NCBI GenBank assembly: GCA_963692945.1
Contig: OY843585.1
Location: forward strand, 180,001 to 212,000
Source: Bdellovibrionales bacterium
GTDB lineage: Bacteria; Bdellovibrionota; Bdellovibrionia; Bdellovibrionales; UBA1609
Reading direction: 5' to 3'
Length of the DNA stretch: 32,000 bases
This document shows positions 50 to 5,119 of this stretch, piece after piece. The notes under the pieces were generated by a model that was given only the letters and a program-made list of their open reading frames with translations, was not told the origin of the DNA and did no database searches. Both the position numbers and the translations under genes were made by a program. How positions within the stretch are numbered: position 1 is the first letter of the stretch; every line of letters begins with the position of its first letter.

Positions 50-125
50 TCAGGCGTAGCTCAGCTGGTAGAGCAAGTGACTGTTAATCACTGGGTCGGG
101 GGTTCAAGTCCCTCCGCCTGAGCCA
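50..125 (+). tRNA. tRNA-Asn (anticodon GTT)
   Basis: 76 nt cloverleaf folded by hand. Acceptor TCAGGCG/CGCCTGA is fully paired. D arm GCTC-AGCTGGTA-GAGC. Anticodon stem AGTGA/TCACT with loop CTGTTAA (GTT at 83-85). 5-nt variable loop. T arm GGGGG-TTCAAGT-CCCTC. Discriminator G and encoded CCA at 123-125. Confidence 0.93.
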
Positions 126-158
126 TTTTTAAACGGAAAAATAAATATTTACTAAATT

Positions 159-192
159 AAAAAAAGGGGAAGCGAAAGCTTTCTATTTTTTT
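159..192 (+). terminator. candidate intrinsic terminator downstream of tRNA-Asn
   Basis: Hairpin GGAAGC-GAAA-GCTTTC (168-183) followed by TATTTTTTT (184-192) and preceded by an A-run. The mirror copy near tRNA-Ser differs only in the loop (GAAT), so the stem is conserved. Confidence 0.45.
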
Positions 193-226
193 AATTTATT
201 ACTGCTTTAAATAGGTAGAGGTTGTA

Positions 227-389
227 GGACTTGAAACGAAAGAACGACCTGTGTTGCTTGCGACTTTAGGAGCAAGGAATACTGGGAAGAAAAACAGGAT
301 GTTTTTCTTAGTGACTGAGGTGAGCCTACGCAATGAGTGAGCTGGATGCGAGGGAATGTAGTAGGCAAGTCCCTCCGCCTGAGCCATTT
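227..389 (+). repeat. tRNA-3'-end-tagged structured repeat, copy A (candidate ncRNA or miniature mobile element)
   Basis: 163 nt, near-identical to 409-571 and homologous to the reverse complement of 4745-4931. Hairpins at 254-279 and 287-309 (10-bp stem AAGAAAAACA/TGTTTTTCTT). T-arm-like stem GAGGGA/TCCCTC at 350-375. The last 24 nt (366-389) are identical to tRNA-Asn positions 105-128, including CCA plus TTT. Confidence 0.7.
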
Positions 390-408
390 ACAAAAAACAA
401 AACTTATT

Positions 409-571
409 GGACTTGAAACGAAGGAACGACCTGTGTTGCTTGCGACTTTAGGAGCAAGGAATACAGGGAAGAAAAACAGGATGTTTTTCTTAGTGACTGA
501 GGTGAGCCTACGCAATGAGTGAGCTGGATGCGAGGGAATGTAGTAGGCAAGCCCCTCCGCCTGAGCCATTT
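409..571 (+). repeat. tRNA-3'-end-tagged structured repeat, copy B (tandem with copy A, period 182 nt)
   Basis: Differs from copy A at about 3 positions. Ends with CAAGCCCCTCCGCCTGAGCCATTT (548-571), the tRNA-Asn 3' end with one mismatch at 552. Confidence 0.7.
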
Positions 572-572
572 A

Positions 573-950
573 CAAAACTCTAGTTCAGTTAAGGTAAATT
601 TCTACTCTTATTCTAACGAGCTTTTCATCGCAAGAGAGACGCTCTTCAAATCTCGTTAGAATAAAAGTTACTTAATAGGCTTATGTTTGAACTAGAGAAA
701 AACTGCTGTTTTTCGCATATTAATTTAGGAGGTTTTCATCGTAAGAGGGACACTCTTCAAATCTCGTTAAAATAAAAGATTTAAACATAGAGAAAAACTA
801 CGGTTTTTCGCATATGGGTAATCTCTTCAAGTTCAGAAAATAAGAAAGGTATTCCTAGAGAAAAACTGCTGTTTTTCGCATATTAGTAATCTCTTCAAAT
901 CTCATTAAAATAAGAGTTGCTTAATAGGTTTATGCTTGAACTAGAGTTTT
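573..950. repeat. mosaic MITE/REP-like repeat cluster
   Basis: Bounded by CAAAACTCTAGTTCA (573-587) and its inverted partner TGAACTAGAGTTTT (937-950), with an internal partner at 688-697. Contains a 13-bp-stem hairpin module (608-620 pairs with 652-664, plus an inner AAGAG/CTCTT-type hairpin). Three GAAAAAC-N4-GTTTTTC hairpins lie at 697-714, 792-809 and 860-877, each followed by CGCATAT and a CTCTTCAA(A/G)T module. Confidence 0.65.
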
Positions 951-962
951 TTATCATAGACT

Positions 963-3876: not shown

Positions 3877-3988
3877 CAAAACTCTAGTTCAAATCCTTTA
3901 TTTTAACGAGATTTGAAGAGTGTCCCTCTTTACGATGAAAAGCTCGTTAAAATAAGAGTAGGAAATACTTTTTTGAACGAGAGTTTTG
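3877..3988. repeat. 112-bp MITE-like element of the same family as 573-950
   Basis: Terminal inverted repeats CAAAACTCTAGTTCAAA (3877-3893) and TTTGAACGAGAGTTTTG (3972-3988) match at 15/17. The internal 13-bp stem TTATTTTAACGAG (3898-3910) / CTCGTTAAAATAA (3943-3955) encloses GAAGAGTGTCCCTCTT. Confidence 0.65.
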
Positions 3989-3996
3989 TTTAGGAT

Positions 3997-4344
3997 TTAA
4001 ACATATTTAATGACTGCAACAGCAATACCCATAAATGTAGGGAGAAGCAAAGTAATAAGCCATGTAGAAACTTTTTGATAATACTTTATACTAACCACAC
4101 TTGCACTGAGTTCAGCATGATCGGTTTTAAGACTTTCTACTTTTGTATCTAATTTATCTACCCTTACATCTAAATCAACCACCTTTTCATCCAATCTATC
4201 TATTCTTGCAGATAATCCATCTATCTTTGTATCTATCTTTGAATCTAGATTTTCTACTTTTCCATCTAATGTTTGCATTTGTGTAGATAATTTTTTTATT
4301 TCAAAAAGAATTTCATTTTGTCCTAAAGCATTGGCGTTCATCAT
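3997..4344 (-). CDS. tail-anchored coiled-coil membrane protein (XhlA-like architecture, homology unverified)
   Basis: SD AGGGAGA upstream of ATGATG. Repeated LDxK(V/I)xxLD heptad/undecad pattern across aa 25-75. Single C-terminal TM segment WLITLLLPTFMGIAVAVIKYV. Confidence 0.7.
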   Translation of the reverse strand: MMNANALGQNEILFEIKKLSTQMQTLDGKVENLDSKIDTKIDGLSARIDRLDEKVVDLDVRVDKLDTKVESLKTDHAELSASVVSIKYYQKVSTWLITLLLPTFMGIAVAVIKYV

Positions 4345-4536
4345 TTTTTCTCCCTATTTTGAGTGTCACTATTGTTTTTATAAAAAATCATTTTTGAACA
4401 AGAATATCTTAACATAAATTGTAAAAAAACTCCATCCAAAAAACTTTTACTCATTACTAAAGCAAATATTATGGCTCTATATAACTTCTAAAAGCAGTTT
4501 TTTTACAACTTTTTTGTATTACTGACGAATATCGGA

Positions 4537-4744
4537 TAAAACTCTAGTGTGTGAATTTTTATTTTAATGAGATTTGAAGAGTGTCCCTTTTACGACGAAA
4601 ACCTCGTTAGAAAATGATGCGAAAAACCAACACTGCGAAAAACAGTAGTTTTTCTCTATGAAACTCTACTTATTTTCTGAACTTGAAGAGTGTCCCTCTT
4701 ACGATGAAAGCTCAAAAAGTAAAAAGGGAAGAACGAGAGTTTTA
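4537..4744. repeat. mosaic MITE/REP-like repeat cluster, inverted relative to 573-950
   Basis: AAAACTCTAGTG at 4537-4549 and GAACGAGAGTTTTA at 4731-4744. GAGATTTGAAGAGTGTCCC modules lie at about 4571-4590 and 4683-4700. GAAAAAC-AGTA-GTTTTTC hairpin at 4637-4654. The cluster directly abuts the tRNA-Ser 3'-end copy. Confidence 0.6.
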
Positions 4745-4931
4745 TAAATGGCGGAGAGGGAGGGATTTGCCTACTACATTCCCTCGCATCCTGCTCACTC
4801 ATTGCGTAGGCTCACCTCAATCACTAAGAAAAACTTCCTGTTTTTCTTCCCTGTATCACTTGCTCCTAAAGTCACAAGTGATTTACTCCTAAAGTCGCAA
4901 GCAACACAGGTCGTTCTTTCGTTTCAAATCC
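4745..4931 (-). repeat. tRNA-3'-end-tagged structured repeat, copy C
   Basis: The reverse complement is homologous to copies A and B, with a 24-nt internal duplication (CTCCTAAAGTC at 4863-4873 and 4886-4896). On its own strand it ends with the tRNA-Ser 3' end: 4745-4769 is identical to 5026-5050 (25 nt, including CCA). Stem ATCACTTG/CAAGTGAT (4855-4862 / 4875-4882) carries changes compensatory relative to copies A and B. Confidence 0.7.
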
Positions 4932-4963
4932 TCAACCTCTACCTATTTAAAGCAGTAATAAAT

Positions 4964-4998
4964 TAAAAAAATAGAAAGCATTCGCTTCCCCTTTTTTT
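4964..4998 (-). terminator. candidate intrinsic terminator downstream of tRNA-Ser
   Basis: Mirror of 159-192. Stem GAAAGC/GCTTCC at 4974-4979 / 4984-4989 with a T-run on the minus strand (A-run 4964-4970 on +). Confidence 0.45.
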
Positions 4999-5029
4999 AA
5001 TTTAGTAAATATTTATTTTTCCGTGTAAA

Positions 5030-5119
5030 TGGCGGAGAGGGAGGGATTTGAACCCCCGAGACCCGTAAAGGCCTGCCGGTTTTCAAGACCGGTGCAATCA
5101 ACCGCTCTGCCACCTCTCC
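5030..5119 (-). tRNA. tRNA-Ser (anticodon TGA)
   Basis: 90 nt class II tRNA. Acceptor GGAGAGG/CCTCTCC. Anticodon stem CCGGT/ACCGG with loop CTTGAAA (TGA). Long variable arm. T arm GGGGG-TTCAAAT-CCCTC. Discriminator G and encoded CCA. Confidence 0.9.

Follow-up and report, generated by a model that had tools for sequence, protein, structure and literature searches.

The window analysed here is a 32,000-nt stretch from the genome of a Bdellovibrionales bacterium (assembly GCA_963692945.1, contig OY843585.1, positions 180,001–212,000 of the forward strand). Behind its genes for the transfer RNAs (tRNAs) tRNA-Asn and tRNA-Ser lie small cassettes, each composed of a spacer or short linker, a conserved body of ~140 nt, and a "tag" that duplicates the 3′ terminus of the adjacent tRNA gene. 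The cassettes share this anatomy, carry locally matching tags at three different tRNAs when other genomes are included, form arrays, and are missing from the corresponding sites of relatives, and their bodies display covariation of the RNA type with a distinct strand preference. We tentatively attribute them to miniature non-autonomous elements, consisting of a terminator and an RNA gene, that insert at the T-loop of tRNA genes with the T-arm GGGGGTTCAARTCCCTC by means of a recombinase acting in trans. This assignment appears plausible and is held with slightly less than even confidence.

Cassette anatomy, arrays and empty sites

Repeat finding and alignments revealed three body copies in the window, as proposed in the initial annotation: two behind tRNA-Asn (copies A and B) and one behind tRNA-Ser (copy C, see Table 1). 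Body words of 21 and 24 nt occur three times each, compared to zero occurrences expected from shuffled sequences, and the cassettes measure 160–260 bp in length. Copy C contains a 23-nt internal duplication at about 4874–4896, inside helix P2. The alignments also bore out the tags as copies of the neighbouring tRNA 3′ end at the positions originally given. In all window tags the identity to the tRNA gene starts with the CAA in the T-loop and stops 3–4 nt beyond the CCA. An intact tRNA together with a direct copy of its 3′ part from the T-loop is the textbook mark of integration into tRNA genes (tDNA; PMC4383910), and integration specific to the T-loop is typically recognised by an identity block reaching from there to the tRNA 3′ end (PMC4383910; PMC3146451). 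Both arrangements are found here, with the displaced tDNA fragment in direct orientation relative to the intact gene. The T-arm GGGGGTTCAARTCCCTC is common to all three target tRNAs, that is, Asn and Ser in the window and Leu in other genomes (see below).

Table 1. Positions of the cassette components and their target tRNA genes in the window. P2–P4 denote helices of the body.
Feature	Position	Strand	Remarks
tRNA-Asn(GUU), intact, T-arm GGGGG TTCAAGT CCCTC	50–125	+	ARAGORN; Rfam tRNA, 69 bits
tRNA-Asn segment repeated in tags, T-loop C56 through CCA plus TTT	105–128	+	repeat finding
Asn-side spacer, terminator-like hairpin 167–184, then T-run	129–226	+	terminator scan
Body copy A	227–368	+	P2 ~248–285, P3 287–309, P4 ~324–365
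Tag A, 24 nt	366–389	+	100% match to tRNA-Asn 105–128
A-rich linker, 19 nt, in place of the long spacer ahead of copy B	390–408	+	
Body copy B	409–550	+	98.6% identical to A
Tag B, tRNA-Asn 3′ end	548–571	+	one mismatch (C at 552)
Tag C, 25 nt	4745–4769	−	100% match to tRNA-Ser 5026–5050
Body copy C	4767–4931	−	95% identical to A or B; 5′ end GGATTTG
Ser-side spacer, terminator-like hairpin 4990–4973	4932–5029	−	terminator scan
tRNA-Ser(UGA), intact, T-arm GGGGG TTCAAAT CCCTC	5030–5119	−	ARAGORN, Rfam

The ~97-nt spacers of the two loci are near-identical, as recognised before, although the earlier value of about 95% has to be corrected upward: 128–224 and the reverse complement of 4933–5029 agree to 98%. 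No homologue of the spacer was found at the loci of related genomes, including the empty ones, and an origin as native intergenic DNA was rejected on these grounds. On the Asn side, the last ~10 nt of the spacer and the start of the body constitute an inverted T-loop motif; on the Ser side, the reverse complement of the spacer end and body start resembles the tRNA-Ser 3′ end over 29 nt, albeit weakly. Neither this motif nor the terminator hairpin of the spacer had been part of the initial annotation. With a length of 7–11 nt the motif is the sole inverted feature, so the terminal inverted repeats of a miniature inverted-repeat transposable element (MITE) are lacking, and the direct repeat amounts to 21–25 nt, unlike the short target duplication of fixed length that such elements leave. 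Two further candidate identities of the body were rejected. An antisense tRNA pseudogene was ruled out as no Rfam tRNA match was obtained on that strand, and a protein-coding open reading frame (ORF) was ruled out because the pseudo-ORFs on both strands have neither homologues nor a Pfam match.

Scanning a genome collection with a 21-nt body word gave a match in one Bdellovibrionales metagenome-assembled genome (L001, CBDETO010000005.1), and further loci (denoted by L numbers in the following) were reached via GcvH, the gene of which adjoins tRNA-Leu. The body was thereby located behind a third tRNA, Leu(UAG), in four other Bdellovibrionales/Oligoflexia genomes, in arrays of one to three units. 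This extends the proposed discrete, structured, tRNA-linked element with a locally matching tag beyond the window. In L001, three near-identical units of 211 nt stand behind tRNA-Leu(UAG), each built from the tag GTCCCTCGCCGGGCATTT, a hairpin spacer of 48 nt and a body of ~142 nt; 27 nt of a fourth body come next. A complete but diverged fourth copy was considered and ruled out, because the sequence beyond these 27 nt belongs to the uvrC 3′ end, and uvrC has its full length when compared to L006. L006 and L007 (GcvH 95% identity) hold a single body cut at position 79. In L008 (GcvH 89%), two units with different spacers are arranged as sp1-b1-tag-sp2-b2; the tag of unit 1 is perfect and unit 2 retains GTCCCT only. 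The mutually identical L009, L010 and L011 read sp2-body-perfect tag and then continue into sp1 for its first 14 nt. The arrays are in phase at the tRNA, end at arbitrary distal cut points, and differ between close genomes, as seen from the unit order in L008 versus L009.

CCA is part of the tRNA-Leu gene in L008 and L009 and is missing from that of L001 and L006. The tags, present in L001, L008 and L009, each follow the local version of the gene: they read GGGCATTT in L001, without encoded CCA, and GGGCACCA in L008 and L009, with it. As the tags track both the CCA status and the trailer, they were copied from DNA and not from mature tRNA. For the same reason, the tag is neither a primer-binding site of the retroviral type nor a mature-tRNA copy, the L001 tags corresponding to the CCA-less gene plus trailer.

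Additional features border the Leu arrays. A gene of family PF04754 (Transposase_31/Rpn-like nuclease; L006, 6646–7700) stands directly after the truncated body, replacing the 3′ part of the element, and a longer PF04754 homologue is located ~5 kb upstream of tRNA-Leu in L008, L009 and L010 (~150–1290). Just past the array, an (ACAT)n microsatellite of ~27 units is found in L008 (7250–7360), and four to five tandem copies of a GC-rich 20-mer (CGCGGGGGTGACAGTGTTTT) in L009 (7025–7115).

Relatives of the organism of the window were reached via MurA (L002–L005; 79, 77, 69 and 68% identity, respectively), and all show the synteny of the window: MurA, a tetratricopeptide-repeat protein, a 90-aa protein, tRNA-Ser and the convergent tRNA-Asn. 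The gap between the two tRNAs spans 4.9 kb in the window (126–5029), ~2.6 kb in L003 (14697–17333), ~1 kb in L002 (14688–15679), 141 nt in L005 (14611–14751) and 22 nt in L004 (14607–14628). A profile search detected no body copy in the gaps of L002–L005, nor further copies in the window. The orthologous tRNA-Ser of all four relatives is without the element, and the tRNA-Asn of the window is identical to that of the element-free L002 and L003. Likewise, the tRNA-Leu of L013 (GcvH 77%) has the identical T-arm, and a T-run and the next gene adjoin it without an element in between. The initial annotation had pointed to empty sites in relatives as a check, and five element-free genomes with the same tRNAs and synteny now supply such attB sites (L002–L005 for Ser/Asn, L013 for Leu). 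Thus, the element has been gained or lost at all three tRNAs.

The Ser–Asn gap is an insertion hot spot in its own right, with ankyrin-repeat genes, a trypsin-like protease and a secreted protein in different genomes. It also hosts a second, MITE-like repeat family (window 574–949, 3878–3985 and 4539–4741; L002 14690–14780) with terminal inverted repeats (AAAACTCTAGTTCA / TGAACTAGAGTTTT) and hairpin modules in its interior. Members of this family begin at one offset (CCATTTNN followed by AAAAC) after tag B, tag C and the tRNA-Ser of L002, suggesting a preference for tRNA trailers or orthologous insertion. Orthology of this flank was considered as proof of the cassette insertion point, but is not decisive because the repeat adjoins tag B on the Asn side as well.

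Covariation of the body and possible roles of its RNA

Seven full copies and one partial copy of the body were aligned and analysed with RNAalifold, which returned four helices: P2, P3, P4 and a closing helix P1. The structure comprises 38 pairs, with pairing in 97.9% of the cells. Two-sided changes affect six pairs, compared to zero or one in controls with slid 3′ partners, and the observed covariation score was reached by 0 of 500 shuffles. It should be noted that the majority of these double changes fall between only two lineages and thus amount to about five independent events. The non-Watson–Crick cells are divided into 11 G·U and two A·C, both of the latter belonging to the copy with the mutated tag and the truncated L006 copy. 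The asymmetry of G·U over A·C points to an RNA made from the tRNA-sense strand. The covariation is real in P2, P3 and possibly P1. In the truncated L006 copy, three of 18 pairs are broken, as expected of a dead copy.

Helix P3 was described as a hairpin in the initial annotation and is substantiated by compensatory changes in other genomes. The stem noted at ~254–279 (P2) is real as well, with 15 pairs and compensatory changes elsewhere, but the T-A to C-G covariation cited for it is unsupported. The T-arm-like stem GAGGGA/TCCCTC proposed there had to be abandoned, as the Leu-linked copies carry GAACGA or GAATGA at those bases. Helix P1 is formed between GGAYTTG at the 5′ end of the body and its reverse complement CAARTCC at the body/tag junction; in copy A, GGACTTG pairs with CAAGTCC at 366–372. 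The GGATTTG of copy C corresponds to the Ser T-loop variant, a C-to-T change in the body motif occurring alongside an A in the T-loop. This single covariation has an estimated probability of ~2% to arise by chance, given seven differences in 140 nt. The mismatch in tag B (C at 552) disrupts one pair of P1. For the first bases of the tag an alternative partner exists in the invariant GAGGNGA just upstream of P4, which pairs UCCCUC, and the 3′ tail has no conserved pairing partner within the body.

In the window, the hairpin and T-run of the spacer lie on the tRNA-sense strand, and the four spacer types of the Leu lineage, with unrelated stems, follow a common form of A-run, hairpin, T-run and ~12 nt. 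The spacer represents a predicted intrinsic-terminator hairpin, and each unit therefore resembles a small gene that shares the ending of the tRNA, in the order body, tRNA 3′ end and terminator. A weak, putative −10-like motif precedes the body by 7–9 nt in the Leu lineage. The body has no match in Rfam 15, at gathering scores or at E ≤ 5.

Much of this would also be in line with a resident, tRNA-linked non-coding RNA, the 3′ tail of which must equal the tRNA 3′ strand in order to act as a guide, decoy or 3′-processing mimic. Selection together with gene conversion would then maintain the identity, and unequal crossing-over would produce the arrays. The strong RNA-type covariation and the strand bias agree with this, as do the persistence behind tRNA-Leu across genomes with 89–100% GcvH identity, tags that track the local CCA or no-CCA version, and a 5′ end that is complementary to the T-loop and covaries with it in the Ser copy. 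Moreover, a 5′ scaffold with a variable 3′ segment of ~15–20 nt resembles the guide RNAs of TnpB and Cas12-type systems. Conversely, the element is missing from five related genomes with identical targets, the tags contain trailer bases that are not part of the tRNA, and the outermost copies (L008, L001, L006) have lost tag or body without obvious cost. Furthermore, no partner protein gene is found nearby at any locus, and the tail lacks a conserved partner inside the body. We consider such a resident RNA rather unlikely. Still, the two hypotheses of the initial annotation that named a miniature element and a tRNA-linked RNA each capture a part, as the unit behaves as an inserted cassette and, judging by its covariation, as an RNA gene.

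Conservation of structure rather than sequence and strand-specific covariation could also reflect a folded single-strand recombination site, like integron attC or CTX-phage attP. In such a site, the body would fold in single-stranded DNA and GGGACTTG and CAAGTCCC would form a duplex copy of the T-loop target, followed by exchange of one strand through a recombinase of the host or one supplied in trans, and by resolution of the junction by replication. At the 5′ end of the body, the inverted T-loop motif covaries with the target, and the arrays would grow beside the attachment site in the manner of integron cassettes. However, covariation rich in G·U(T) and units bounded by terminators suit an RNA equally or better, the body adopts a multi-branch fold and not an imperfect hairpin, the repeated core has 21–25 nt instead of ~7, and no evidence of integron-type or Xer-type recombination was found. 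A single-strand site is thus regarded as very improbable. A further possibility, for which we would give only a slim chance, is that the RNA serves as the programmable specificity component of its own mobility, which would make the cassette a mobile element of RNA alone that homes to tRNA genes. With its 5′ end antisense to the T-loop and its 3′ tail in sense orientation to T-stem, acceptor strand and trailer, the RNA would read both strands of the tRNA gene on behalf of a recombinase or nuclease encoded in trans, comparable to bridge RNAs or omega-RNAs. Changing two short segments would let one family colonise Asn, Ser and Leu tRNAs.

Proposed routes of cassette insertion

Our preferred interpretation, insertion by a recombinase acting in trans, is outlined as follows. 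The inserting unit would consist of a short terminator-hairpin spacer and the ~140-nt structured-RNA gene, co-directional with the tRNA. Upon insertion, the tRNA would be complete and end in the terminator of the cassette, and a second tRNA segment, reaching from C56 of the T-loop to ~3 nt beyond the 3′ end, would mark the far side of the cassette. The tags are accordingly read as putative att-site cores or displaced tDNA fragments and not as tRNA mimics evolved in place, because regenerated tDNA with a displaced 3′ fragment is the mark of T-loop-specific recombinases. As the cassettes are devoid of protein genes, the recombinase would have to be encoded elsewhere and act in trans, as with cis-mobilizable elements (CIMEs). 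New cassettes would enter beside the tRNA and displace older ones outward, giving rise to in-phase tandem arrays with eroding outer ends; the phase of the arrays, their arbitrary far cuts and the differences in unit order fit this direction of growth. Identity of tRNA end and tag may be kept via exchange during excision and integration. The predicted RNA would span GGAYTTG through the tag into the next terminator, and its 5′ end could pair with the T-loop-derived junction in P1. As to its role, our guess is selfish or regulatory cargo, or a cofactor of its own recombination.

That one body carries the tags of different tRNAs had seemed unexpected in the initial annotation, on the premise that an integrase ties one element family to one tRNA core. 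This premise is too strong. In phage Ms6, an altered 26-bp attP core directs an unchanged integrase with unchanged arms towards other tRNA genes (PMC1762012), making one set of arms with different cores feasible.

Several points weigh against insertion in trans. No integrase, transposase, reverse transcriptase, TnpB or Cas gene is encoded in the 32-kb window, and none was found within 5–10 kb of the element across 12 loci, with the exception of the PF04754 gene in L006. The spacer, which would serve as the P′ arm, is not conserved in sequence, rendering lambda-type arm sites on that side unlikely. Excised circles of 160–260 bp would be sterically strained, and the evidence base is confined to two host lineages, three tRNAs and seven full copies. 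Finally, conservative recombination alone cannot yield near-identical Asn and Ser cassettes with both tRNAs intact. This needs a rare core switch, or two pre-adapted subfamilies homogenised by gene conversion, and it is this problem that keeps target duplication, template switching and a functional, reprogrammable tag alive as explanations.

Duplicative insertion would resolve the problem of the Asn and Ser cassettes directly. Here, a transposase or Cas1-like integrase supplied in trans would cut ~24 nt apart at the tRNA 3′ end, or replication would switch templates at a pair of short homologies, CCATTT and CAARTCCCTCC; the tag would be a true target duplication created with each insertion. 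Perfect tags that match the local gene at three different, intact tRNAs are accounted for automatically, also in the case of the near-identical Asn and Ser cassettes of one genome, and distal array ends cut at arbitrary points are likewise compatible. The convergent tRNA-Asn and tRNA-Ser are 85% alike over their final 33 nt, which favours a local template switch. Yet the cassette has no terminal inverted repeats besides the 7–11-nt inverted T-loop motif, target duplications of 24–25 bp are rare, and the 2–5 nt between the perfect repeat and the conserved start of the cassette differ between Asn and Ser. In addition, no gene for such an enzyme was found near the element at the examined loci, and a template switch cannot account for spread between genomes. 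Duplicative insertion is therefore judged doubtful.

The initial annotation had also considered that the cassettes are what remains of the ends of larger islands, here taken as conventional ones with an integrase. The tDNA fragment in direct orientation speaks for such decay, as do the accessory genes in the Ser–Asn hot spot. However, the 5′ boundary of the body is identical in two distant lineages despite spacers that differ in length and sequence, the covariation indicates purifying selection on an RNA fold, and integrase remnants are absent. Decayed islands are hence the least credible origin and may be considered highly unlikely.

Genomic surroundings and relation to known systems

Beyond 1–5400, the window is composed of housekeeping genes (murA, prmC, prfA, rho, gatCAB, ligA, groESL). 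Between the two tRNAs, a trypsin-like protease, a secreted protein without known function and a coiled-coil protein are encoded. The trypsin-like gene (ORF 963–2342, minus strand) has a G10 run near its 5′ end (2303–2312; C10 on the coding strand), and its signal-peptide ATG at ~2400 is out of frame with the remainder, unlike in the L003 orthologue. The tract represents either a homopolymer sequencing error or a phase-variable tract. Further along the window, a 445-aa ORF without Pfam match (13315–14652, minus strand) features a long, highly acidic low-complexity tract encoded by repeats at 14171–14567 with a period of 9–15 nt, and two 44-nt direct repeats with 95% identity (23539–23582 and 23603–23646) are located just downstream of the groEL-like gene. 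Neither an ORF with a Pfam match nor an integrase gene was found inside the cassettes. BLAST searches of phages and plasmids returned no record resembling the body, two metagenome scans and four viral-contig scans for the body gave no match, and exact look-ups of the window proteins including MurA were without match.

Should insertion in trans prove correct, these RNA-only cassettes of ~200 bp would be about the smallest tDNA "islands" known to us. They bear the full insertion signature of integrase-driven islands, and island finders that require an integrase would miss them. The structured RNA family is new to Rfam and stems from the poorly studied, largely uncultured, predatory or symbiotic Bdellovibrionota/Oligoflexia. 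As a natural case of one cassette family with three tRNA cores, it bears on how tRNA-targeting elements change specificity, and the in-phase arrays could record successive insertions. If the RNA programmes targeting, a compact, retargetable integration tool would be at hand.

Among known systems, the cassettes resemble the islands and prophages that integrate into tRNA or tmRNA genes at a T-loop attachment site (Ms6, the "T-stem region" class of Islander), which share the intact tRNA with a 20–26-bp direct 3′ copy from the T-loop to just beyond the 3′ end, tandem arrays, and a retargetable core (PMC1762012, PMC4383910). The cassettes differ in their size of just 160–260 bp, in carrying a terminator and a structured RNA gene instead of protein genes, and in the presence of one family at three tRNA species. 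CIMEs are defined by retention of attL/attR and lack of integration and transfer genes (PMC5704250). Both properties apply to the cassettes, and the tandem accretion of such elements, including the Dehalococcoides ssrA island arrays, is a further parallel. However, CIMEs are decayed kilobase-scale integrative and conjugative or integrative and mobilizable elements beside a related functional element, whereas the cassettes are a conserved, tiny RNA-only unit with no related autonomous element in view at the loci.

Integron cassettes with their attC sites are likewise promoter-less small units that accumulate in phase beside one attachment site, and their recombination site is strand-specific and preserves its fold rather than its sequence. 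In contrast to integrons, neither an integron integrase nor attI accompanies the cassettes, the core is 21–25 nt of tRNA instead of 7 nt, and the body forms a multi-helix fold that is probably RNA. Casposons and CRISPR spacer integration by Cas1 share the insertion at tRNA 3′ ends together with target or repeat duplications that are tens of bp long. Here, no Cas1 and no terminal inverted repeats were found, and the insert is one conserved RNA-gene family.

Guide RNAs (TnpB omega-RNA, Cas12 single guides and the tRNA-homing CRISPR RNA of type V-K CRISPR-associated transposons) offer a parallel on the RNA level, as they combine a ~140-nt scaffold with a 3′ segment of ~15–24 nt. The 3′ segment of the cassettes is identical to its DNA target, the tRNA gene 3′ end. 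No TnpB, Cas12 or transposition genes were found near the cassettes; omega-RNAs or palindrome-associated transposable elements of the IS200/IS605 type are not indicated either, given no Rfam omega-RNA match and no tnpB or iscB at any locus. Moreover, the "guide" of the cassettes includes the trailer and perfectly repeats the adjacent DNA, so that its target is always present.

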